Of a stretch of 64,000 bases of DNA, positions 3,200 to 39,486 are shown in pieces. Source of the DNA: a virus; UHGV virus genome UHGV-0176771. The stretch is one strand, 5' to 3'. A program made the translations under genes and the position numbers. Each line of letters starts with the position of its first letter. Within the stretch, counting starts at the first letter, position 1. Below the pieces are notes generated by a model. It did no database searches. It saw nothing but the letters and a program-made list of their open reading frames with translations, and had not been told where the DNA came from.

Positions 3200-3286
3200 G
3201 CCGGACACGTTACGGCTCTGTCAAGAAATATATTGCACTGTAACGGGAAATCCTTTATAATATAGAAAGAAAGGGGATACAAAACT

Positions 3287-3547
3287 ATGACAAAAGAGCA
3301 GGAAATTGAGATATTAATGGAAGATTATTGTACTAGATCGGAAGCAGAAGATCATTTGAAATGTGGAACGATTGTATTTGAAGAATCTGATTTAAAAAAA
3401 CATTGTGAATTATATGTAAAAGAATGGAAATTTGATGAAGAAGAAGCCGAAAGTTTTCGGACTATGCTAAATGGTGGGAAGTTGTTTGCAGATTGGGGAA
3501 AGGTCGAAAAGGACGGTAATACATTCTATATCATGTATTGCTTATAG
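3287..3547 (+). CDS. hypothetical protein (86 aa)
   Basis: ORF track. RBS AAAGGGGATACAAAACT then ATG. Confidence 0.55.
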   Translation: MTKEQEIEILMEDYCTRSEAEDHLKCGTIVFEESDLKKHCELYVKEWKFDEEEAESFRTMLNGGKLFADWGKVEKDGNTFYIMYCL

Positions 3548-7718: not shown

Positions 7719-8231
7719 ATGAATATCGAAGTAAATAAGACAAATGTAAAAGTAGAAGGAAATAATCTGGTTATCGAATTGACGGAAGAACTAAGGAAGT
7801 CTTTAGGAATGAGGCAAGAGAAACAGTTATATGAATGCAAGGTTGGAAACGTGATTGTAGACAACATTGGAAATGAATGGTATGTGGTGGAACATGATAA
7901 CAAGAACAATAGAACCAAAGTTTGGAGAAAAGAACTTCTTGACGGAACTTATAAATTCGACAGTGAATCAAATGATTTTAGAACTTCTGAAATCAAGAAT
8001 ATGTTGAATGATGAAAGAGAGAAGATTCTTACTGATATTTACAAAGGTTTTGGAAAAGAAAATGTATTAGTTGATACAGTTGATTTGCTTTCTATGGATG
8101 GACTGGATACTTACGGAATATGTAATTGTAAAGTACATTTAGGCACTTTTGATGATTACAGAAAAGCAAAAAAGAATGGTATGTTTAGGACAGAAAATGA
8201 AAAACCGTTTTGGTTAGATACACCAACCTGA
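7719..8231 (+). CDS. Second DGR target protein (170 aa). Ends at an in-frame TGA; the homologous variable repeat continues in the same frame to 8372
   Basis: C-terminus ...FWLDTPT* aligns codon-for-codon with target 1 ...YWLSTPNQT. The TGA aligns with a Gln codon. Downstream in frame is ...SSSFVQVVGGRGNVDYSVCGWGVRGVRPF, the VR. Confidence 0.65.
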   Translation: MNIEVNKTNVKVEGNNLVIELTEELRKSLGMRQEKQLYECKVGNVIVDNIGNEWYVVEHDNKNNRTKVWRKELLDGTYKFDSESNDFRTSEIKNMLNDEREKILTDIYKGFGKENVLVDTVDLLSMDGLDTYGICNCKVHLGTFDDYRKAKKNGMFRTENEKPFWLDTPT

Positions 8232-8250
8232 ACAAATGAAGGATGCTCAT

Positions 8251-8334
8251 CTTCCTTTGTTCAGGTTGTTGGCGGTCGTGGGAACGTGGATTACAGCGTT
8301 TGCGGCTGGGGCGTTCGTGGAGTTCGTCCGTTTT
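8251..8334 (+). repeat. DGR variable repeat 2 (VR2), cognate to the TR at 28394..28480, located 20 kb from the TR
   Basis: CTTCCTTTGTTCAGGTTGTTGGCGGTCGTGGGAACGTGGATTACAGCGTTTGCGGCTGGGGCGTTCGTGGAGTTCGTCCGTTTT. About 19 differences from the TR fall on TR adenines and one does not (C to T). Shares the VR-type 3' end GGAGTTCGTCCGTTTT. Confidence 0.75.
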
Positions 8335-8459
8335 GCTCTTTAGACTCTTCAATCTGTGTATCAGTTGAATAACGTAGAACTTTGGAACAGTCAGGAACAG
8401 CTTTTTGCTGTTCCGTATGTTATGGAAACAAATAATGATTTTATCGGGAGGAAATAGTT

Positions 8460-24220: not shown

Positions 24221-24847
24221 ATGGACAAGAATAAAATTCTCGAAGATTATATCGGAAATGACATGAAAAAAATTCGTAAGATTTGCAAAAAGATTATTTC
24301 AAAAACAAATGTTCCAGATGGATATCTTGAAGAATATTACGACAAAGCAGTTGATGTTTTAATGGAAAGTATGAATACCTATGATGAATCAAGAAATTGT
24401 AAATTCAGTACATATTTTTATGGAAATCTTGTACGAAGAACAGGAACGTGGATAAGAGATTGTATGAGATTTAAAAGATGCAATCTTGAAACAGATAGTA
24501 AAGGAAAAATTAAAAGAGACGAAGATGGAAATCCGATAGTTATTCCAGATATGTCCATCAATATGCAAATTGATTTAGACGAAGATTATACATTAGAAAA
24601 CAGTATTGCTTCTGATTTTAATCTGGAAGGGGAAATTATAAATAGACTTCACCCCACAACAGATAAAATTGAAATGTATAAGAGCAATTTATCTTATAAG
24701 CAACAAAAGGCGGTCGATCTCATATGCGATGGATACACTCAAGATGAAATTATTGAAGAATTAAACATAACAGAAAGAGAATATAAAGACAATATACTTG
24801 GGACTATGCGTCTTTATGAAAATGTAAAAGTGTTGTTGTGCGAATAA
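24221..24847 (+). CDS. Sigma-70-family sigma factor-like protein (208 aa)
   Basis: KFSTYFYGNLVRRTGTWIRD (region 2-like) and QQKAVDLICDGYTQDEIIEELNITEREYKDNILGTMRLYENVK (region 4 HTH-like). Confidence 0.55.
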   Translation: MDKNKILEDYIGNDMKKIRKICKKIISKTNVPDGYLEEYYDKAVDVLMESMNTYDESRNCKFSTYFYGNLVRRTGTWIRDCMRFKRCNLETDSKGKIKRDEDGNPIVIPDMSINMQIDLDEDYTLENSIASDFNLEGEIINRLHPTTDKIEMYKSNLSYKQQKAVDLICDGYTQDEIIEELNITEREYKDNILGTMRLYENVKVLLCE

Positions 24848-24867
24848 AAAATTGGAGGAATATAATC

Positions 24868-26331
24868 ATGGCAAAGAAAATTAGAAAAAAGACATTATCG
24901 CTAGATTCCTATTTAGAGAAGATTGTGGAAGAAGATATTAGTGATAATCAGGACGTTCAAAGACTGTTTTGTTGGGAAAATGGAATGGTGAATGAGTTAA
25001 TCAAAACTGTATTAACTGATGATTATATTCCACCAATTATCTTAGGAGAAGAAGATTTGGACGAAGACGTTGTGCAGCAATACATTGTTGATGGAATGCA
25101 AAGAAGTTCTGCGTTGGTTAAATTTAAGCATGAAAACTATAAAATTACAGCTACTTTAGAAGATCCGATTATCCAATATCAGAGAAAAAAGAAAGATGAA
25201 AATAATAAAATCTGTAAAGATGAATACGGAAAAGTTATTTGGGAATCTGTTGAATATGATTTGAGAAGAAAAACATATGAAATGTTACCGCCAGAATTGA
25301 AAAAAATGTTTGATGATTATCAGATTGACATTACAATACATCAGCATTGTACGATGTCACAGATTAGTAAATTGGTGAGAAGATACAACAATCATTTGGG
25401 AATGAATACATCTCAGAAAGCATTTACTTATATTGATTTACATGCAAGAAAAATAAGGACAATATCTGAGAAAAATAAATTCTTTAAAAATTGTATGTCT
25501 TGTTCCGGTAAGCAGCAATCGAAAGGTATTAGAGAAAGACTTGTATGTGAATCTGTCATGACAACGTTTTTCTTTGATAACTGGAAAAGTGCAATAAAGA
25601 ACATGAGCAAATATCTAAATGAGAACGCAACGGAAGAACACTTTGATACTGTAAATGAATATTTTAGCAGGATTGAATCTGTGTGCAAAGATAATTTCAC
25701 AGAAGTGTTTGTGCCAAAAAATGTTATTGTTTGGATCCCTGTGTTTAAAGAGTTTGCTAAATTTGGATTAGATGATATTAAGTTTAAGGATTTTGTAGAA
25801 GAATTTGAAAAGTCTTTATATAAAAAAGATGTAAATGGAGTAACATTTGACAAATTAAATGAGGATCGACATACAAAAGGCAAGGCTATTTTAAAAGAGA
25901 AAATTAACATCTTAACTGCTCTCATGAAAGAGTATTTACATATTAAAGAAGATGAAGAAAGTCTTGTCAAAGTGGGAGAGAATAATGTAATAGATAATGC
26001 TTCTTCAGACCAGAACGCTCTTGAATTTATCAAAGAAAATGTTAAAGAAGATGTGATTGATGAAGACATCGAATTATATAAAATTCAGTTAGATGACTGG
26101 ACAGTAGAGGTTGATAACTCATCGAAACTTCTTGAACCTGAAAACATGAATTCTTTACTTGCTGTTGTTGCGTACAGCTTTGAAACAAACATAGATTTAG
26201 AAATTCCGGAGTGGATGGTAAGTTTCTTTAACAGAAATTCTACATATATTAAAGATCAAAAAGAAAATTATACATACATGGTAAATGATATTGGTGAATT
26301 TTTAAGGAACAAGTATGAACTTGTAGGATAA
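24868..26331 (+). CDS. DUF262 (ParB/Srx-fold; GmrSD N-terminal-type) domain protein (487 aa)
   Basis: QQYIVDGMQRSSALVKF matches the DUF262 DGQQR motif. RBS ATTGGAGGAATATAATC then ATG 24868. ORF-track start 24838 overlaps the sigma-like gene. Confidence 0.6.
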   Translation: MAKKIRKKTLSLDSYLEKIVEEDISDNQDVQRLFCWENGMVNELIKTVLTDDYIPPIILGEEDLDEDVVQQYIVDGMQRSSALVKFKHENYKITATLEDPIIQYQRKKKDENNKICKDEYGKVIWESVEYDLRRKTYEMLPPELKKMFDDYQIDITIHQHCTMSQISKLVRRYNNHLGMNTSQKAFTYIDLHARKIRTISEKNKFFKNCMSCSGKQQSKGIRERLVCESVMTTFFFDNWKSAIKNMSKYLNENATEEHFDTVNEYFSRIESVCKDNFTEVFVPKNVIVWIPVFKEFAKFGLDDIKFKDFVEEFEKSLYKKDVNGVTFDKLNEDRHTKGKAILKEKINILTALMKEYLHIKEDEESLVKVGENNVIDNASSDQNALEFIKENVKEDVIDEDIELYKIQLDDWTVEVDNSSKLLEPENMNSLLAVVAYSFETNIDLEIPEWMVSFFNRNSTYIKDQKENYTYMVNDIGEFLRNKYELVG

Positions 26332-26511: not shown

Positions 26512-26776
26512 GGTAAAAAAGATGAGATTTAACTGGGAAGAATTTAAGGATGCAGATAATAAGATTGCGGTGCATTGCAAGACCGAGGAAGAAGCGAAAG
26601 ATTTTTGCAAGCAGATGAATGAGAAAGGGATGAAGTAGAGAGCTGGAGATAGTTATTTAGAGTATACAGAATATGGAAAATATCTCAGTAAAACATGCTA
26701 TACAGGAACCGGAGGGTTTGGATATTACGAATATTACGAAAGTGAAGGATATAAAATCTTAGAATGGAGCGACTAC

Positions 26777-27118
26777 ATGAGCAAAGAATTTACCAAAGCA
26801 GATTTAAAAAGTGGGATGGTAGTGGAATATAGAAATGAGTCATTGGGTAGAAGAGTTGTTATTGAAGACCTTTTGATTGGTGCAGATACTTATACAGATC
26901 TTAAAAATTACAATCATGATCTCACTAACAGAGCAAGAATAGCTGATCTTGATATTGTGAATGTGTACAAAATCAAACAAGGATATCCGTTTAGAAGTAT
27001 CATGTATGATGACAATCTCGAACTTATCTGGGAGCGCAAAGAATCAAAGAAAATGACAGTGGAAGAAATGCAACAGAAGCTTCAAGAGCTGACAGGAGAA
27101 GAAATTGAAATTGTCTAA
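26777..27118 (+). CDS. hypothetical protein (113 aa)
   Basis: ORF track. RBS AATGGAGCGACTAC then ATG. Confidence 0.5.
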   Translation: MSKEFTKADLKSGMVVEYRNESLGRRVVIEDLLIGADTYTDLKNYNHDLTNRARIADLDIVNVYKIKQGYPFRSIMYDDNLELIWERKESKKMTVEEMQQKLQELTGEEIEIV

Positions 27119-27141: not shown

Positions 27142-27906
27142 ATGTGTGAATTTAAAAGTGGGATTATTTTTAAGAATAGGGTGGAACTTGCACCATTAGG
27201 GAATGAAAGTCATTCAAGTTTACTTGAAAACTTGGGTGTAGAAGATAATGAATTTAATGCTTCTAAGAAATTTGTGAGAGCAGAATTAATTCCGCCAGAG
27301 AGATATGTTATCACTTCTGACATTTCAAAGTGGACTTATAAAGTCGATCAGGATATTGTGCCAGAATGGTATAGTAACGATCCAGAGAGATATGAAGAAG
27401 AATTTAGAGAATCCGTTAAAGATTTTATGAACAAGCACTTTAAAGAGGAATTTGGATACTATTGGACAAACATTCAAATGGATGGAAAGATATATCATTT
27501 TATGTATGGAGTTCTTACGAATATGACTTTCGGCAGCAACAATAATTATGGAGAGTCTTTAGTAAGAAAATATCTTAAAGAGTGTAAACTTGCAAAAGAT
27601 ATTAAAGAAAAATATGGAAATAGTATTGTTCCATTTGAAAATAACTTGCTTAGTATGTATGGATTTAATGATTATGGCGTTGTAAAAGACGATGTATTAT
27701 CTATTCCGACATTTGATTTATTTAGAAAATGTGGTGAAAAACTTCCATTAATCAATTATGCATACTGGCTGTCAACTCCAAACCAGACACCGTCAAGAAA
27801 AGATTCTTCCTATGTTCAGGTTGTCTACGGTTGTGGGGACGTGCATTACAACGATTGCTACTGGAACGTTCTTGGAGTTCGTCCGTTTTTTATCACCGAA
27901 TCTTAA
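27142..27906 (+). CDS. DGR target (variable) protein 1 (254 aa) with a C-terminal C-type-lectin-like variable region
   Basis: C-terminus ...SSYVQVVYGCGDVHYNDCYWNVLGVRPFFITES is encoded by VR1. RBS AAGGGAAAGGAGAAATAAATT then ATG. Confidence 0.8.
   Translation: MCEFKSGIIFKNRVELAPLGNESHSSLLENLGVEDNEFNASKKFVRAELIPPERYVITSDISKWTYKVDQDIVPEWYSNDPERYEEEFRESVKDFMNKHFKEEFGYYWTNIQMDGKIYHFMYGVLTNMTFGSNNNYGESLVRKYLKECKLAKDIKEKYGNSIVPFENNLLSMYGFNDYGVVKDDVLSIPTFDLFRKCGEKLPLINYAYWLSTPNQTPSRKDSSYVQVVYGCGDVHYNDCYWNVLGVRPFFITES
27806..27888 (+). repeat. DGR variable repeat 1 (VR1)
   Basis: Aligns with the TR at 28396-28478. All 11 differences are at TR adenines (A to G/T/C). 3' end GGAGTTCGTCCGTTTT versus TR GGAGTTCGTCCGTTCT (IMH versus IMH*-like). 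Confidence 0.8.
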
Positions 27907-28045
27907 ATCTGTTTATCTTGTCGATAACGTTTTGTGGAGACGAAGACAGAACAATGCGCAAGCGTTGTTCGTAAGTCTCCGAAGAACCAAACTCAGCAAG
28001 ATTGGAGTGATTTATGTGGAAGTTATTACAAAAGCTATCGACTTA

Positions 28046-28369
28046 ATGCAATATACATATTCTGTAACAGCGAATAAAAAGAGATATCCAGCAAAATATA
28101 AAATGCTTATAGAAAGAATTCAGAATGAATGTATGAATATATATGATTTTCTGATGAGTGCAAATAGAATACAAATAAATGCAGAAAAACAGAAAAGATT
28201 AGATTTACAAACTAGATCTATTTCCTCATGTGATAAATTGTCCTGCTATGTTGAATTATCAATGAATCTTAGCCTTATAGGATCAGATACAGTTGAATAT
28301 TGGCAGAAAAAGATATGCGATGTTAAGTACATGACAATAGCATGGAGAAGCAAAGATAAAACAAGATAA
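28046..28369 (+). CDS. Avd-like accessory variability determinant candidate (108 aa; alternative GTG start 28007)
   Basis: Small basic helical ORF between VR and TR (MQYTYSVTANKKRYPAKYKMLIERIQNECMNIYDFLMSANRIQ...YMTIAWRSKDKTR). Position and size fit an Avd four-helix bundle. ORF-track 27758 start is an N-terminal extension through the VR. Confidence 0.5.
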   Translation: MQYTYSVTANKKRYPAKYKMLIERIQNECMNIYDFLMSANRIQINAEKQKRLDLQTRSISSCDKLSCYVELSMNLSLIGSDTVEYWQKKICDVKYMTIAWRSKDKTR

Positions 28370-28393
28370 AATTTTTTTGGTTGTTTGCTATAC

Positions 28394-28480
28394 GACTTCC
28401 TATGTTCAGATTGTCAACAGTAATGGGAACATGAATTACAACGATTGCAACTGGAACGATCATGGAGTTCGTCCGTTCTG
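28394..28480 (+). repeat. DGR template repeat (TR)
   Basis: CTTCCTATGTTCAGATTGTCAACAGTAATGGGAACATGAATTACAACGATTGCAACTGGAACGATCATGGAGTTCGTCCGTTCTGG. Adenine-rich (AAC/AAT codons) where the VRs vary. Confidence 0.8.
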
Positions 28481-28552
28481 GATCGGAAGACGAAATAGAG
28501 TAAGAGAAACACTGAAATTAGAGTCCCGATATCAAAAGAGCAAACAACCTTT

Positions 28553-28572
28553 CCTGTCTAATCAAAGACAGG
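28553..28572 (+). other. Spacer hairpin between TR and RT (CCTGTCT-AATCAA-AGACAGG)
   Basis: Perfect 7-bp stem in the TR-RT spacer, where DGR RNAs carry structure needed for cDNA priming. Confidence 0.4.
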
Positions 28573-28596
28573 ATAAATACAAAGGTAAAATATATC

Positions 28597-29634
28597 ATGA
28601 TAAAAGATAACACAGATTTTGATAAGATTATTGATTTTGAAAATTTATATAAAGCATACAGAGATTCAAAAAGTGGCAAAGGTTTTACGAAAAGCAGAAT
28701 TAAATTTGAATTATCTGCTCTTGACGGAATTTATCAAATTAAGAAACTTTTAGAATCAAAGCAATATGAAGTAGATAGATATAATAGATTTAAAGTATAT
28801 GAACCGAAAGAGAGAATTATAGAAGCAGGAAGTTTTAAAGACAAAATTGTGCAGCACAGTTTATGTGATAATGTGCTTCTTCCTATTTTAAGTAATGAAT
28901 TTATATACACGAATTATGCCGGACAAATAGGAAAAGGAACATTGTTTGGTTTGGATTGTCTGAAATATCAAATTTATTTAGCATATCAGAAATACGGATA
29001 TGATTGTTGGATTATTAAAGGTGATATTAAAAAATTTTTCTATAATATTGATCATAATATTCTGAAAGATATTGTTCCATATTTTATATCTAATCCAGAT
29101 ACATACTGGTTATGTGAAAAATTTATTGATAGTACAAGTGAGAAAGGGTTGCCTCTTGGAAATCAAGTTAGTCAGGTATTTGCTTTATTATATTTGTCTG
29201 GTTTTGATCATTTTATAACTGGAGAGTTAGGTGTCAAATATTATGGAAGATATATGGATGATTTCTATTTAATTGTAGAATCAAAACAATATGCAAAATA
29301 TTGTTTGTGTGCAATAGAAGATTTTGTAAACACTCTAAATCTTGAATTGAACGGTAAAACTCAGATTATACCTTTTAAAAATGGAATTAAATTTTGTGGT
29401 TTTCATACACATGTCACAAAAGATGGAAAGGTAATTAGAAAACTTACAAATGAAAAGAAGAGAAAATCGAAAAAGAAATATCGAAAAATGGCAAAGATGG
29501 TAAAAGAGAATAAGTTATCAAAAGAAAAATTCATAGAATCTTATGAGTCTTGGAAGAATCATATTTCACATGGTAATTGTATCAAATTTACATATGAGAT
29601 GGATAAGATGATAGATGAGATATTATCAAGTTAA
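28597..29634 (+). CDS. DGR-type reverse transcriptase (345 aa)
   Basis: RT motifs RIIEAGSFKDKIVQHSL, GDIKKFFYNIDHN, YGRYMDDFYLI (YMDD) and the DGR-specific LGNQVSQ (SQ motif). Confidence 0.9.
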   Translation: MIKDNTDFDKIIDFENLYKAYRDSKSGKGFTKSRIKFELSALDGIYQIKKLLESKQYEVDRYNRFKVYEPKERIIEAGSFKDKIVQHSLCDNVLLPILSNEFIYTNYAGQIGKGTLFGLDCLKYQIYLAYQKYGYDCWIIKGDIKKFFYNIDHNILKDIVPYFISNPDTYWLCEKFIDSTSEKGLPLGNQVSQVFALLYLSGFDHFITGELGVKYYGRYMDDFYLIVESKQYAKYCLCAIEDFVNTLNLELNGKTQIIPFKNGIKFCGFHTHVTKDGKVIRKLTNEKKRKSKKKYRKMAKMVKENKLSKEKFIESYESWKNHISHGNCIKFTYEMDKMIDEILSS

Positions 29635-29732: not shown

Positions 29733-30377
29733 ATGAGAAAAATTAAGAAAATTGTAACTATAGTAACAATGTGTTGCTTTATTACAGCTCTATCTGGATG
29801 TGCAATGTTGGAATCGGAATTTAACGATATCAAAGGTTCATTGATTGGAAATGGATATCGTATTGATACATATGATAATTATGGTTCAAAGGTACTAGAA
29901 ACATCAGGAGACAAAATCAATATTTCTGGGAACAAAGTGGAGACTACAAGTTACAGTAGTGATGGATCTACATCCACTAATTATGATTTATCATCTGTAA
30001 TTACAATTACAATTGACGGTAAAGAAATTGAAAGTTGCGGAGATACTTGTATTTTTGTACAGGATGGACTAAATAGCGAAGTTGATTTTACCGAAGAGAG
30101 AATTAAAAGTATGACAGATGGTTCATTTTCTGATAATACATTCGTTGCTGAGTTTGTAAATAAATACAAAAATATGTTTGGGAAGTCGCGGGTGGTCGTT
30201 ATTAAATCGCAGCTTGGACAACCTATTACAGCGTATTCCGGGGAAGAAGTATATTGGGAAATCCCGGATGATCTACCTAAAATGACAAAGCTAATGATTG
30301 ACGGAAAAGCATTGTATATACATAGAGCTAATTTTCAGATTATTGACAAAGCATTATTAGATCAAAAAGGAGAATAA
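29733..30377 (+). CDS. lipoprotein (214 aa)
   Basis: Signal peptide MRKIKKIVTIVTMCCFITALSGC with lipobox LSGC. RBS GAAGGAGAATAGATGA then ATG. Confidence 0.6.
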   Translation: MRKIKKIVTIVTMCCFITALSGCAMLESEFNDIKGSLIGNGYRIDTYDNYGSKVLETSGDKINISGNKVETTSYSSDGSTSTNYDLSSVITITIDGKEIESCGDTCIFVQDGLNSEVDFTEERIKSMTDGSFSDNTFVAEFVNKYKNMFGKSRVVVIKSQLGQPITAYSGEEVYWEIPDDLPKMTKLMIDGKALYIHRANFQIIDKALLDQKGE

Positions 30378-34931: not shown

Positions 34932-35399
34932 ATGAACGTATTAGAGAAGATTTTGGAAGAGATTGAAGAACGTGTGAACATGGTTGAAAACATTCCAGTA
35001 GATGAAGATGATGGTTTTCTGGATGGCGAGGAGTGTTATGAAGCCGGAAGAATACAAGGTCGATATGAAGAGCTAGTATGGTGCAGAAATATAATTCGTT
35101 CTCACATGGATGAAGTTCAAAATTGCGGAGATTGTAGCCGAAGAAAATGGTATCAGAAAGGATATGAAGACAGTAAGAAAGATAATGGGTGGATTCCTTA
35201 TACAGAACAAAATATGCCTAAGAAAGAAGGTATATATCTTGTAACGTGTGACGATAAAGAATATCCGGTAAAGAGAATGAGATTTAAAAAAGAGGATGAA
35301 TATGGTCTCTGGTATGACGATTATGGGATTTATGACGGGGTAATATTTGCATGGCAGCCACTTCCAAAACCGTACAAAATGAAGAATGAAGGAGAATAA
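34932..35399 (+). CDS. hypothetical protein (155 aa)
   Basis: ORF track. RBS AATAGGTAGGTGAAATT then ATG. Confidence 0.55.
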   Translation: MNVLEKILEEIEERVNMVENIPVDEDDGFLDGEECYEAGRIQGRYEELVWCRNIIRSHMDEVQNCGDCSRRKWYQKGYEDSKKDNGWIPYTEQNMPKKEGIYLVTCDDKEYPVKRMRFKKEDEYGLWYDDYGIYDGVIFAWQPLPKPYKMKNEGE

Positions 35400-35625: not shown

Positions 35626-35907
35626 ATGAAGAAAAACAATGTAAAAACAGCCACCATCAGATGTGATGATAATGCAGAAGCAGTTGTGTTTTCTAAATAT
35701 ATAACGGAAAATTCAACTGATTTTGAAATCTCTTTTGAGGATTCATATTGCGGTGGAGATTTTAAAGGAATTATTGGAAGATTTAAAAGAGCATGGATGG
35801 CGTTCTGGAATAAGCCGGTATGTTATACAGGTATATATTGTGAAAGTGGGCGTGATAGAGTAAGAAACTTTCTGAAAGAATGCTTGGAATTGGTAGAAGG
35901 AGAATAG
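35626..35907 (+). CDS. hypothetical protein (93 aa)
   Basis: ORF track. RBS AAAAGGAGAAAGAGAGAGCTAATAT then ATG. Confidence 0.5.
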   Translation: MKKNNVKTATIRCDDNAEAVVFSKYITENSTDFEISFEDSYCGGDFKGIIGRFKRAWMAFWNKPVCYTGIYCESGRDRVRNFLKECLELVEGE

Positions 35908-35912
35908 GGAAT

Positions 35913-36452
35913 ATGAAGGTTTTAGTTGTAGTAGATATGCAAAACGATTTTGTGAGTGGAAATTTGGGAACAAAAGAAGCAGTTGCAATTGTTCCGGATG
36001 TAAAGAAAAAAATTGAAGAATATTACAATAACGGTGATGTAGTTTTCTTCACAAAAGACACACATTTGGATGGTTATTTAGATACTCAGGAAGGTAAAAA
36101 ATTGCCTGTAGAGCATTGTGTTATTGGAACAAACGGATGGGAAATTGTAGACGAATTAAAATCTTACGCAAAACACGTAATTAATAAAAATAGATTTGGA
36201 AGTAATTACCTTGCAGAATGTATCCATGGCGGTTTTGCTAGTAATGATTATGATAGCGTTGAACTTGTTGGTGTATGTACTGATATTTGTGTAGTGTCGA
36301 ATGCTCTATTAATTAAAGCATGGGTGCCAGAAATGGAAATTACAGTCGATGCGTCGTGCTGCGCTGGTGTCACTCCTGAAAAGCATAGAGCTGCGTTAGA
36401 AGTGATGAAATCTTGTCAAATTAATGTGATTGGAGAGAAAACTTATGATTAA
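35913..36452 (+). CDS. Isochorismatase-family cysteine hydrolase, nicotinamidase (PncA)-like (179 aa)
   Basis: MKVLVVVDMQNDFVSG...KDTHLDGY...VELVGVCTDICVVSNA matches the PncA/isochorismatase catalytic Asp-Lys-Cys pattern. RBS GAAGGAGAATAGGGAAT then ATG 35913. Confidence 0.7.
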   Translation: MKVLVVVDMQNDFVSGNLGTKEAVAIVPDVKKKIEEYYNNGDVVFFTKDTHLDGYLDTQEGKKLPVEHCVIGTNGWEIVDELKSYAKHVINKNRFGSNYLAECIHGGFASNDYDSVELVGVCTDICVVSNALLIKAWVPEMEITVDASCCAGVTPEKHRAALEVMKSCQINVIGEKTYD

Positions 36453-37260
36453 AATTAACGGAGAGGTGTTAAATACAAAGAAGTTTCCAGACGGAACACT
36501 TTTGATTAAAGAGGATGTTCCTTATAATTTTGAAAATTATAGAGAGGCAACTATTACATGGTTGTTTGAAAATAATGAAGAATTAGTGACGCTAATTTAT
36601 ATTGTAAAGCATCTTAATTCTCATGGTATTGCAAGTCTGTATCTGAATATGCCATATATCCCAAACAGTCGTCAAGACCGTGTTAAAACAACTGAAGACG
36701 TATTTACATTAAAGTATTTTGCGGAAGTTATTAATTGGTTGGATTTTGATTCTGTAACAGTATTAGATCCACATTCATCTGTAAGCGAAGCTCTTATTGA
36801 TAGAGTTTTAATTAAATATCCAGACAAATATGTGTGGAAAGCGATTGAAAGTGAATACATTGGTGGCACAAATAATCTTACAATGTTCTATCCGGACGAA
36901 GGAGCTATGAAACGTTATTCTACAATGTTTGATCTTCCTTATGCTTTTGGTATTAAAAAGCGCGATTGGGAAACAGGGGAGATTAAAGGACTAGATGTTT
37001 CAGGCATGACAAATCTGATTAAAGGAAGAAAAATTTTAATTGTAGATGATATTTCAAGTCGTGGCGGAACATTTTATCATTCAGCTATTAAGTTAAAGGA
37101 ACTGGGAGCAAAGGAGATTTATCTATATGTATCTCATTGTGAAAATACAATCCTCGAAGGAGAAGTATTGAGTAGTGGATTGATTGACAGAGTGTTCACG
37201 ACAAATAGTATTTTTACAAAAGAACATGAGAAAGTAGAGGTATTTGAATATGACGAATAA
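36445..37260 (+). CDS. Ribose-phosphate pyrophosphokinase (Prs)-like protein; candidate ADP-ribose pyrophosphate synthetase (Adps) of an NAD+ reconstitution pathway (271 aa)
   Basis: PRPP-synthetase fold with PRPP/ribose-phosphate binding loop ILIVDDISSRGGTF. Overlaps the NAMPT-like gene by 11 nt. RBS GGAGAGAAAACTT then ATG 36445. Confidence 0.7.
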   Translation: MIKINGEVLNTKKFPDGTLLIKEDVPYNFENYREATITWLFENNEELVTLIYIVKHLNSHGIASLYLNMPYIPNSRQDRVKTTEDVFTLKYFAEVINWLDFDSVTVLDPHSSVSEALIDRVLIKYPDKYVWKAIESEYIGGTNNLTMFYPDEGAMKRYSTMFDLPYAFGIKKRDWETGEIKGLDVSGMTNLIKGRKILIVDDISSRGGTFYHSAIKLKELGAKEIYLYVSHCENTILEGEVLSSGLIDRVFTTNSIFTKEHEKVEVFEYDE

Positions 37261-38734
37261 GACAAATCCAATGTTATTAATTGACTTTTATAAAGCGGTT
37301 CATGCAGAAATGCTACCTGAAAATATTACAAAATCAGTTTCCTATTTTACTCCTAGAATGAGTCGTGTAAAACGATGGGATAAAGTAGTAATGTTTGGAT
37401 TACAGGGGTTTATTAAAACGTATCTGATTGATTATTTCAATGAAGAATTTTTTGACAAACCTTTTGAAGAAATTATTTATGAATATAAAAGAATTATGGA
37501 TGCATCACTTGGTAAGGATGCGTATAAAATTGACAAGATTGAAAGTCTACATAAATTGGGATATTTGCCAATTGAGATTGTTGCATTGCCAGAAGGTACA
37601 ATTGTTCCAATGCATGTGCCTATGTTTGGTATTACAAATACACATAAAGATTTTGCATGGCTGCCTCAGAGTTTAGAAAGTCTTATCTCGGCAGAAATGT
37701 GGCATCCAATGTTAGCAGCAACAGTAGGAATGACCTATCGTGGCATCGTTAATCACTATTATGGTCTAACTTGTGATGACTATATTCCAAGATCAAAAGC
37801 TCTTGGTGCCTTTGACTTCCGGGGAGAAGAGTGTTTGGAATCAGCGGTAAAAGCAGGCGCTGGGTGGTGTTTATCATTTTTGAATACAGCAACCGTTCCA
37901 ACTATTCCTTATCTTGAAAAGAATTATTTTTGTGATTGTACAAAAGAACCTGTTGCATATGGAAGTCCTAGTACAGAACATTCTGTAATGTGCAGTAATT
38001 ATGCAGTAGATGGAGACGAGATTACATTATTAAGAAGATTACTTACTGAAATCTATCCAAACACAAGTTTTTCAGCAGTTCTTGACTCTTATGATTATTG
38101 GAATATCATCGATAATATTCTTCCTCAATTAAAAACAGAAATCATGAATCATAACGGATGCATGTTGATGCGTGGAGATTCTGGAGATTGTGTAGAAGTT
38201 GTAACAAAAACTGTATTTAAATTATGGGAAGAATTTGGCGGGACAGTTAATAGCAAGGGGTATAAAGTGTTAGATCCACATGTAAAAGCAATTTACGGTG
38301 ACTCAATTACAGTACAGAGATGTGAAAAAATTTACAGAATTCTTATGGAAAATGGATTTGCGTGTTCAAATGTAGCACTAGGAGTTGGATCGTTTTCATT
38401 TCAGTGCATCGAAGAAGATGGAGTATTAAAACCATTTACAAGGGACACTTTTAGTTCTTGTATTAAAGCAACATATTGTGAGATTGATGGAAAAGCTACT
38501 CCAATTTTTAAAAATCCTAAGGACGGTGGTTTTAAGAAATCACAGAAAGGATGCTGCAGAGTATATACACGATGTGATGGAAGTATTTATTACGAGGATG
38601 GGCTTACATGGAAACAGGCTATTGATTATGAAAAACGTGGAAATATGTTAATTCCAGTCTTTAAAGATGGAGAATTATTAAAAGAACAATCGTTAAAAGA
38701 AATTAGAGATAGACTACATGGAGGAGAATTTTAA
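37250..38734 (+). CDS. Nicotinamide phosphoribosyltransferase (NAMPT/NadV)-like protein; candidate nicotinamide ADP-ribose transferase (Namat) (494 aa)
   Basis: N-terminus NPMLLIDFYKAVHAEMLPENITKSVSYFTPR...VMFGLQ parallels NAMPT ([29 protein letters not shown]...YGLQ). Type II PRTase size. Confidence 0.75.
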   Translation: MTNKTNPMLLIDFYKAVHAEMLPENITKSVSYFTPRMSRVKRWDKVVMFGLQGFIKTYLIDYFNEEFFDKPFEEIIYEYKRIMDASLGKDAYKIDKIESLHKLGYLPIEIVALPEGTIVPMHVPMFGITNTHKDFAWLPQSLESLISAEMWHPMLAATVGMTYRGIVNHYYGLTCDDYIPRSKALGAFDFRGEECLESAVKAGAGWCLSFLNTATVPTIPYLEKNYFCDCTKEPVAYGSPSTEHSVMCSNYAVDGDEITLLRRLLTEIYPNTSFSAVLDSYDYWNIIDNILPQLKTEIMNHNGCMLMRGDSGDCVEVVTKTVFKLWEEFGGTVNSKGYKVLDPHVKAIYGDSITVQRCEKIYRILMENGFACSNVALGVGSFSFQCIEEDGVLKPFTRDTFSSCIKATYCEIDGKATPIFKNPKDGGFKKSQKGCCRVYTRCDGSIYYEDGLTWKQAIDYEKRGNMLIPVFKDGELLKEQSLKEIRDRLHGGEF

Positions 38735-39486
38735 TGTTTAATGCAAATGAAATTAAAACTGAAATTATTGAATGGATCCAGAACTTCTTTAAAGAGAACG
38801 GGAGTGGTTGTAAAGCAGTTGTTGGTATTTCAGGAGGGAAGGATTCGACGATTGTTGCTGCACTCTGCGTTGAAGCTCTAGGAAAAGAAAGAGTGCTTGG
38901 AGTCCTAATGCCAAACGGTAAACAAAAAGATATTGATGTTGCAAAGAAGGTGGTTGATCATCTTGGAATTGAAAATATCGAGGTGAATATTTTCAATGCA
39001 GTAAGAGATATTAAACATGAAGTGAAGTCTGAATTGGACGATCACTGGAGCAGACAGTCTTCTATCAATCTGCCGGCGCGAATTAGAATGGCTACATTAT
39101 ATGCTGTGTCTCAGACTGTAAATGGAAGAGTTGCGAATACATGTAATTTATCTGAAGATTGGATTGGATATAGTACAAGGTGGGGAGATAGTGTTGGTGA
39201 TTTCAGTCCATTGTCTAATCTGACTGTTACGGAAGTTAAGGAAGTCGGATATGCACTTGGACTTCCGAAAGAGTTCATTGAGAAAATTCCATCAGATGGT
39301 CTTTGTGATAAAACAGATGAAGATAATTTAGGATTTACATATGAAGTTCTCGATAAATATATCAGAACAGGCGTAATTGATGACAAACAATTAAAGAAAA
39401 AAATTGACCAGATGCACGAAAAGAATTTGTTTAAATTGCAAATGATGCCGTCATTTAGTTTTAAACACGAGAGTGATAAAAGTTGA
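38734..39486 (+). CDS. nadE: NH3-dependent NAD+ synthetase (NadE) (250 aa)
   Basis: PP-loop motif VVGISGGKDSTIVAAL (SGGxDS). NadE-type length. Start overlaps the NAMPT-like stop (TAATG). Confidence 0.8.
   Translation: MFNANEIKTEIIEWIQNFFKENGSGCKAVVGISGGKDSTIVAALCVEALGKERVLGVLMPNGKQKDIDVAKKVVDHLGIENIEVNIFNAVRDIKHEVKSELDDHWSRQSSINLPARIRMATLYAVSQTVNGRVANTCNLSEDWIGYSTRWGDSVGDFSPLSNLTVTEVKEVGYALGLPKEFIEKIPSDGLCDKTDEDNLGFTYEVLDKYIRTGVIDDKQLKKKIDQMHEKNLFKLQMMPSFSFKHESDKS

Follow-up and report, generated by a model that had tools for sequence, protein, structure and literature searches.

Among described systems, the closest in layout is the diversity-generating retroelement (DGR) carried by Bordetella phage BPP-1 (mtd-avd-TR-brt), the prototype. 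Its target gene, avd, template repeat (TR), spacer and reverse transcriptase (RT) follow each other in this order, changes pass in an adenine-specific manner from the TR to a variable repeat (VR) at the 3' end of the gene for a C-type-lectin-fold target, and a GC-rich 3' element shared by both repeats is followed by VR-specific sequence. We found the same features in the viral genome UHGV-0176771, of which one 64,000-nt stretch was analysed (the window, to which all positions refer). Its positions 27,142 to 29,634 almost certainly hold a complete DGR, made up of target 1, avd, TR, spacer and RT, that also serves a remote target 2 located 20 kb upstream, the whole being part of a phage-like element of ~174 kb from gut bacteria of the Lachnospiraceae type. 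Of the features that define a DGR, all those open to testing in silico are present, and the direct observations comprise the parts themselves, their adenine specificity, variation of the VRs between samples against an invariant TR, covariation in the RNA, and the lectin fold as it was modelled.

The RNA of the Bordetella DGR has an Avd-binding stem-loop after the TR and, further on, the 'cPRT Stop', which consists of a ~11-bp duplex between TR-upstream and spacer sequence, a stem-loop and adenosines (bioRxiv 10.1101/2023.10.23.563531). Handa et al. predict this layout for many other DGRs (bioRxiv 10.1101/2023.10.23.563531). By position and architecture only, the window RNA appears to share the three-part layout seen by cryo-electron microscopy: its stem-loop 28480..28533 sits where the Bordetella RNA has the Avd-binding stem-loop, and its hairpin, A-rich stretch and long-range duplex would correspond to the published 'cPRT Stop'. 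The locus differs from BPP-1 in several respects. The two RTs share little identity (E 2e-33) and the TR, at 83 nt, is short. The upstream strand of the duplex lies in the gap between avd and TR and not within avd, and a composite stem-loop of ~54 nt follows the TR in place of an 11-bp stem with a tetraloop. The hairpins that follow the VRs are 47-61 nt off, not directly adjacent, and there are two targets, one of them 20 kb away, both small, of DUF6273 type and away from tail genes.

With respect to the targets, the closest relatives are DGR phages of gut Firmicutes. The Faecalibacterium prophages Lelie, CP11, Roos and Pioen carry DGRs with DUF6273 targets (PMC11792537), and the DUF6273 targets of phages nd4 and nd12 have been named 'tentaclins' (PMC10743442). 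DUF6273 lectin targets, small single-domain targets and pairs of targets per TR are already known in gut Firmicutes phages (PMC10743442, PMC11792537). The present locus resembles these in having its variable region at the C-terminus of a lectin-like DUF6273 domain, in its small targets, in the target pair served by one TR and in its gut Clostridia hosts. Unlike them, it has RT identity of at most 46%, lies on an element of ~174 kb as compared to genomes of 30-60 kb, has N-terminal modules that are unrelated in both targets as far as tested, and has a second target that is distant and truncated. Two further proteins compared, Treponema denticola TvpA (2y3c) and the C-terminal domain of Legionella Lcl (DUF1566; 8q4e), differ in being cellular surface proteins with signal sequences (identity 11-14%). 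The N-terminal DUF6273 domain of the Thomasclavelia ramosa IgA peptidase (9qa6; PMC12402451) differs in lacking DGR diversification and in being part of an 844-residue secreted protease. This element is therefore a new example of a known system, and the general picture of what a DGR is stays unchanged by it. Its points of interest are a remote and truncated target 2 that is still rewritten, a conserved motif flanking the VRs together with a hairpin at a fixed offset, a spacer RNA structure with good support in a new clade, and two targets that both lie away from virion modules in a large element.

Repeats, enzymes and targets of the retroelement

A preliminary description of this DNA, made from the letters alone, had reported an 83-bp repeat pair about 590 bp apart with all 11 mismatches on TR adenines, and this was found as described. 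Positions 27806-27894 and 28396-28484 form a direct repeat with an offset of 590 that aligns without gaps. Over the 83 nt of VR1 (27806-27888) and TR (28396-28478) there are 12 mismatches, 11 of which fall on TR adenines (five A>G, five A>T and one A>C). The remaining mismatch, at the terminal base, has C in the TR against T in the VR; the earlier text had given it separately as a difference between the initiation of mutagenic homing (IMH) sequence and an IMH*-like one, and it is kept in all relatives except one. Within the first 80 nt of VR1, 11 of the 24 A sites are changed against none of the 56 non-A sites (Fisher p 2e-7). The TR adenines are at codon position 1 or 2 of the target frame in 23 of 24 cases, and the AAC/AAT codons said to make the TR adenine-rich number seven in that frame. 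A scan of the whole window that tolerated adenine changes revealed one further copy on the + strand, VR2 (8251-8333), 20 kb upstream of the TR, with 17 of 24 A sites changed against 1 of 56 others (p 5e-11). Its sole non-A change besides the end is C>T at 8270, while the terminal C/T difference is as in VR1. Tabulating both VRs against the TR by base, as had been proposed, thus gives an adenine bias at each of them, and the same bias is seen across 30 related genomes. In all 64 kb, GGAGTTCGTCCGTT, the GC-rich 3' element, has just three copies, in VR1, VR2 and TR; at the 3' end of the VRs the order is the shared GGAGTTCGTCCGTT, then T (C in the TR), then a VR-specific flank motif. From the end of VR1 to the stop codon of target 1 there are 18 nt.

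Related loci were taken from IMG/VR via the RT and via target 2, and 21 genomes with both loci on one contig were scored, each against its own TR. The TR is identical in 20 of these 21. VR1 has 317 changes at A sites as compared to 4 elsewhere and VR2 has 324 as compared to 3, which pooled gives 641 A-site versus 7 non-A changes (p 1e-209). The TR variant of these relatives has five non-adenine differences from the window TR, and every VR1 matches its own TR at these positions, the signature expected of TR-to-VR copying. A second and independent set was obtained from exact matches to the window Avd in public assemblies. Nine independent samples with the exact window TR show 141 VR1 changes at A sites and none elsewhere; the genomes in which both TR and Avd are exactly those of the window carry nine VR1s, eight of which differ, always at A sites. 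The DGR is evidently active, with VRs that vary and a TR that is fixed between samples.

The RT had been said to carry YMDD together with the DGR motif LGNQVSQ, and both are present. A comparison with all PDB sequences ranks 8ub7_A first (E 2e-33, 119 bits). The next RT class in PDB is that of the group II introns (E 5e-10, best 42 bits), with retron-type and defence-associated RTs (DRT) lower. The 8ub7_A chain of 328 aa is taken to be the Bordetella DGR RT because its F66, R74, I76, I181, G182 and Q187 are numbered as Handa et al. number them in bRT. Their counterparts in the window RT are F, R, I, L, G and Q, the last ones inside LGNQVSQ. NCBIfam and PADLOC contain no DGR RT model, and their only matches to this RT are sub-threshold ones to group II, DRT and retron models: TIGR04416 (group II intron RT/maturase), the top NCBIfam model, scores 100 bits against a cut-off of 300 (E 2e-28), and the retron St85 model 35 bits against 235. 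No group II intron, retron or any other Rfam RNA family reaches its threshold anywhere in the window. By these comparisons the RT belongs beside the Bordetella DGR RT, away from those of group II introns and retrons, the closer kinship to the latter that had been named as evidence against a DGR being contradicted by the far better Bordetella match. In two close relatives (L028:10001-11080 and L030:10001-11080) the RT frame is broken after about residue 254 and runs into stops, with VR1s that are still diversified; the same break is seen in L029 and L031-L034, judged by match length. The broken frame in L028 and L030 may represent an insertion or a decayed RT.

A basic 108-aa open reading frame (ORF) at 28046..28369 had been proposed in the position of avd. 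Its Avd-like and basic character was borne out, but its start was not. The start is more likely GTG 28016, because the profile matches begin at residue 1 of this longer form and public assemblies call the gene as 117 aa; this GTG is preceded by GGAG, and ATG 28046 is probably ten codons too late. The protein matches phrog_3206 ('Avd protein of DGR') at E 4e-17 and PF22296 (bAvd) at E 0.003, and NF033474 (DivGenRetAVD) at E 2e-8 with 34 bits, under the curated cut-off of 80 bits. A comparison with PDB by sequence gave no match.

Target 1 has hundreds of homologues of equal length. In an alignment of 36 of them, a fixed scaffold (V.G.V.Y..C.W...GVRPF) is interspersed with hypervariable positions at the codons that contain TR adenines. 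Structure prediction of the C-terminus had been recommended, and the AlphaFold model (predicted local distance difference test (pLDDT) 93, predicted template modelling (pTM) score 0.88) gives with confidence a C-type-lectin fold of the DUF6273-like kind. The protein itself scores 13 bits (E 0.09) with Pfam DUF6273 (PF19789), under the gathering cut-off of 23.5, and 26 of 36 close homologues match PF19789 at E <=1 (best 9e-7); its kinship to DUF6273 is thus drawn from the fold and from family members, not from its own Pfam score. Residues 1-100 form a separate module, which in other phage records (MT835516.1, PP511522.1) stands free of a lectin domain; modelled alone (pLDDT 90), it has no convincing structural relative. 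Within this module (27142-27444), M1-C2, F4-K5-S6-G7, E22-S23-H24-S25 and V68-D69-Q70-D71 are invariant or nearly so. Both targets match phrog_9958. The preliminary description had called target 1 not an obvious tail fibre and its region non-structural, in agreement with the replication and auxiliary genes that surround it.

Table 1. Parts of the DGR and associated elements in the window (positions in nt).
Feature	Position	Strand	Remarks
Target gene 2	7719..8372	+	ORF 7719..8231 (170 aa) to TGA 8229-8231; frame reopens for 46 codons through VR2 to TAA 8370-8372
VR2, remote variable repeat	8251..8333	+	17 A-site changes, C>T at 8270, terminal C/T
AT-rich flank motif after VR2, TTTTGCTCTTTAGACTCTTCAATCTGTGTATC	8331..8362	+	like the VR1 copy
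8-bp hairpin after VR2, GGAACAGC / GCTGTTCC	8394..8414	+	DNA fold z -2.9
Target gene 1, 254 aa	27142..27906	+	~100-aa N-terminal module and predicted C-type-lectin (DUF6273-like) C-terminal domain ending in VR1
VR1	27806..27888	+	3' end of target 1; 11/11 internal mismatches at TR adenines
AT-rich flank motif after VR1, TTTTTTATCACCGAATCTTAAATCTGTTTATC	27886..27917	+	target 1 stop 27904-27906 inside; candidate cis element
Composite stem-loop, target 1/avd gap	27936..27980	+	inner 9-bp stem 27949-27957/27962-27970, loop GCAA
avd-like gene, 117 aa	28016..28369	+	probable start GTG 28016; pI 9.3; Avd profile matches
Upstream duplex strand, GGTTGTTTGCT	28379..28389	+	between avd stop and TR; exact complement of 28539-28549
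TR, template repeat	28396..28478	+	24 adenines; 7 AAC/AAT codons; identical in 9 independent samples
Composite stem-loop 3' of TR	28480..28533	+	outer 28480-28491/28523-28533; inner 28503-28506/28510-28513
Spacer duplex strand, AGCAAACAACC	28539..28549	+	just 5' of spacer hairpin; 11-bp duplex bracketing TR
Spacer hairpin	28552..28573	+	8 bp, 28552-28559/28566-28573, loop AATCAA; A-rich AUAAAUACAAAGG next
DGR reverse transcriptase, 345 aa	28597..29634	+	YMDD, LGNQVSQ; PDB 8ub7_A E 2e-33; RVT_1; phrog_1423 E 5e-110

Spacer RNA and acceptor sites

The spacer between TR and RT is conserved in DGRs whose RTs are 53-98% identical to the window RT. The perfect hairpin noticed there earlier is real and belongs to a conserved, covarying RNA, although it has 8 bp and not the 7 bp first given. 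Six of its eight pairs are changed on both sides among relatives, and the composite stem-loop after the TR (10 + 4 pairs) has 10 pairs changed on both sides. Relatives have the long-range duplex that brackets the TR in the corresponding place, and compensatory changes in it are seen in L113, L119, L120, L121 and L019; the strands are GGTTATTCATT with AATGAATAACC in L120, GGTTGCCTATT with AATAGGCAACC in L121 and GGTTGTCTATT with AATAGACAACC in L019. When RNAalifold was applied to 40 diverse DGR spacers, only the base of the spacer hairpin was recovered (compensatory changes in 3 of 4 pairs) because subgroups are out of register with each other. The other helices were counted on a subgroup of 23 sequences in register with the window, using an explicit structure of 26 pairs which, being derived partly from the window sequence, is somewhat favoured by the count. 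In this subgroup 93% of cells are paired, as compared to 34-50% when partners are slid by 1-3 columns, 16 pairs are changed on both sides, and none of 500 shuffles reaches any of the observed measures. The covarying spacer RNA carries the layout solved for the Bordetella element over to a phage clade of Clostridia.

Two further pairings were considered and set aside. A CCUUU/AAAGG helix around the spacer hairpin is invariant and has no covariation support, and sequestration of the ribosome-binding site by this never-varying helix was rejected on these grounds. Candidate priming duplexes between the spacer (AGAGC) and the end of the TR (GTTCT or GTTC) were pairings found by eye that overlap the long-range duplex, and they are not claimed.

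At the acceptor sites, a flank motif of ~32 nt, with the consensus TTT[TG]NATCTTNNNATCTNNTATCT[TC]TG[TA]ATC, lies directly 3' of every VR in the clade. It is missing after the TR and within the window occurs only at the two VRs. It is shared by 63 distinct VR flanks (L052-L186), of proximal and remote targets alike, even where its second half is non-coding. Its distribution suggests a cis-acting DNA element for target recognition, though a conserved C-terminal peptide could account for part of the conservation. Beyond the motif, the stem after VR2 and the inner stem after VR1 both begin exactly 61 nt past the VR. In relatives a GC-rich hairpin is present 50-65 nt past VR1, often with a GNRA-type loop and with varying stem sequences. 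The stem-loop at 27936..27980 is followed by no T-run. In BPP-1-type elements the hairpin is 4-34 bp from the VR (PMC3240598), and because the distance here exceeds that range, we only infer a role of these stems in homing.

If the element works as the Bordetella phage DGR does, an RNA of at least ~207 nt (28379-28585) would be transcribed, in which the 11-bp duplex (28379-28389/28539-28549) would bracket the TR, and the composite stem-loop after the TR, the spacer hairpin and the adenosines that follow it would dock the complex of RT and Avd. This complex would prime cDNA synthesis from the spacer and halt at the upstream duplex, copying the TR faithfully save opposite adenines, where any base would be possible. 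The cDNA would replace the VR, entering at the shared GC-rich GGAGTTCGTCCGTT, and the VR-specific flank motif together with the downstream hairpin probably marks both acceptor sites. As the outcome, up to 17 codons would vary on the ligand-binding face of the lectin (DUF6273-like) domain, whose scaffold residues V, G, Y, C, W and GVRPF would stay fixed. It is by analogy that we infer how cDNA synthesis is primed and where it stops, by which route the cDNA integrates, and a biological ligand.

The locus offers a natural example with an internal control, having one TR, two acceptors 20 kb apart, the same TR in many independent samples, and a pair of TR variants. It could be used to study how DGRs find remote targets, with the hairpin at fixed offset and the conserved flank motif as candidates; the reach of 3'-to-5' conversion tracts, as read from mosaic tracts of the two TR variants; and what role small DUF6273 lectin proteins coded outside virion modules play in large gut phages.

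The truncated second target and alternative explanations

VR2 is in frame with the ORF of target 2, yet is separated from it by the TGA at 8229-8231. The phrog_9958 match to target 2 spans this TGA, and only the lectin half is common to both targets (39% identity over 110 residues). At the TGA site a sense codon (AGT or similar; …DTPDSTNEG…) is present in about 30 relatives, whose gene is intact; three substitutions in a stretch of six bases (AACAGT to ACCTGA) set the window apart from them. A sequencing error is ruled out by the occurrence of the exact 170-aa truncated product on 20 public contigs that stem from many runs and from an NCBI metagenome-assembled genome (MAG) as well, and the TGA allele, also present in L192-L199 and L214, is real and established. 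The TGA-bearing contigs compared (L192-L199) still differ in VR2: the first 26 nt are common to all and the 3' part varies. At non-adenine marker positions their VR2s are mosaics of two TR variants, a pattern that fits repeated conversion tracts of variable length starting at the 3' end of the VR.

Our favoured explanation is that target 2 is a recent pseudogene which is still rewritten, since homing would act on DNA regardless of translation. The principal alternative is that the TGA is bypassed by read-through or local recoding, giving a full-length variable protein of 216 aa, perhaps at a low and regulated level. The allele is established as described above, the frame past the TGA is open through VR2 to the ancestral stop on all TGA contigs while VR2 keeps changing, and the codon stands in a UGA-A context. 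UGA-A is a comparatively leaky stop context in bacteria. The open frame, however, weighs little, because DGR mutagenesis of AAC-type codons cannot make stops, and the ongoing rewriting of VR2 is equally expected of a pseudogene. TGA is moreover the genuine stop of 12 tightly packed genes, the window has no tRNA genes, including suppressors, and the sense codon is present in the ~30 relatives, all of which make a bypass unlikely. Recoding of a stop codon throughout the genome was likewise rejected, as TGA ends those 12 genes and recoding any stop merges no ORFs meaningfully.

A broader proposal would have the targets act as soluble intracellular or accessory lectin-fold binders, coded among early, replication and auxiliary genes, and not as receptor-binding proteins of the virion, would have acceptor sites recognised through the ~32-nt motif and the hairpin at 61-nt offset and not through an adjacent GC-rich hairpin as in BPP-1, and would explain the persistence of target 2 by regulated read-through. 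Taken as a whole, this combination is speculative and we give it less credence than the bypass alone. If it were true, diversification would track variable molecules of the host or of competitors, such as defence or exclusion factors.

Several observations weigh against an active and complete DGR. The VR1 sequence is identical on 11 contigs, so not every sample differs and the rate is not extreme. The variation is seen between samples and not within one population. The Avd score lies below the NCBIfam curated cut-off and the protein has no PDB relative by sequence, target 2 has a premature stop in this genome, and the hairpins after the VRs, at 47-61 nt, stand beyond the 4-34 bp of BPP-1-type elements, with a VR2 loop that is not GNRA. 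Some of these would also be expected if the cassette were a relic here that no longer diversifies, with VR differences inherited from an active ancestor, as the identical target 1 protein including VR1 comes from several runs, target 2 is truncated by a stop, and the L028 and L030 relatives have the broken RT frame noted above. Such a relic is nevertheless quite improbable. RT, Avd and TR are intact, all conserved helices of the RNA are preserved, eight of nine VR1s in genomes with the exact TR and Avd differ at A sites only, and even contigs with the rare TGA allele still differ in VR2. Although the top NCBIfam RT model is a group II intron RT/maturase (at 100 bits as against the 300 of its cut-off) and generic RT and DRT models match weakly, a pair of paralogous segments diverged by ordinary mutation next to an RT from an unrelated group II intron or retron can be dismissed, given an adenine bias of p 2e-7 for one VR to 1e-209 when pooled, the ungapped alignment, a TR copy in no long ORF shared with the targets, the 119 bits of the RT to the Bordetella DGR RT versus 42 to the best group II RT, the lack of intron or retron RNA in the window by Rfam, and the Avd gene adjoining the RT.

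Genomic neighbourhood and host

All genes of the window lie on the + strand, the GC content is 29-36% and the GC skew is strongly positive throughout. Among the products are a sliding clamp, a tyrosine recombinase, sigma-factor-like proteins, a GmrSD-N/DUF262-like protein, a DNA methyltransferase, a PAPS-reductase-like protein, a nucleotidyltransferase, and a Band_7 (PF01145) protein labelled 'lipoprotein' by phrog_200. The 10 kb past each end of the window code for DnaB, AAA_24, a CCA-adding enzyme, UvrD and a Y-family polymerase, and no virion genes are recognisable in the ~84 kb of co-oriented genes made up of window and flanks (L212, L214). Four independent contigs of 172-174 kb suggest that the whole element is a large phage or phage-plasmid of ~174 kb. 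A contig of 174,048 bp in run SRR5899003 (SRR5899003_10) is identical to the window wherever the two were compared, and DXOZ01000049.1 is another contig of 174 kb.

IMG/VR lists many relatives as viral contigs, and none of the deposited phages and plasmids is similar. The nearest annotated phage RT, that of phage nd12, has 46% identity, and species-representative genomes contain only relatives with 73% RT identity, in Lachnospiraceae. Two stretches resemble the Ruminococcus gnavus phage phiRgPS_6 (93% over 377 nt at 35001-35377, gp51; 74% over 574 nt at 26528-27101, gp53), and these are the only closer hints of a host range.

A cluster of four genes at 35880-39486 is devoted to NAD salvage and codes for an isochorismatase-family protein (probable nicotinamidase), a ribose-phosphate pyrophosphokinase, a nicotinamide phosphoribosyltransferase and an NAD synthetase. 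Near the DGR itself, the GmrSD-N/DUF262-like protein (24838-26331) has 497 aa, or 722 aa in several relatives, and is located one or two small ORFs upstream of target 1; a sigma-factor-like gene (24221-24847) adjoins it. On the other side, the RT is followed in the window and in most relatives by a DUF5052 protein (29733-30377) with a lipoprotein-like signal (…ITALSGC…), whose place directly after the RT is taken in L203, L204, L209 and L211 (~3220-3354) by an IS605 OrfB (TnpB-like) gene.

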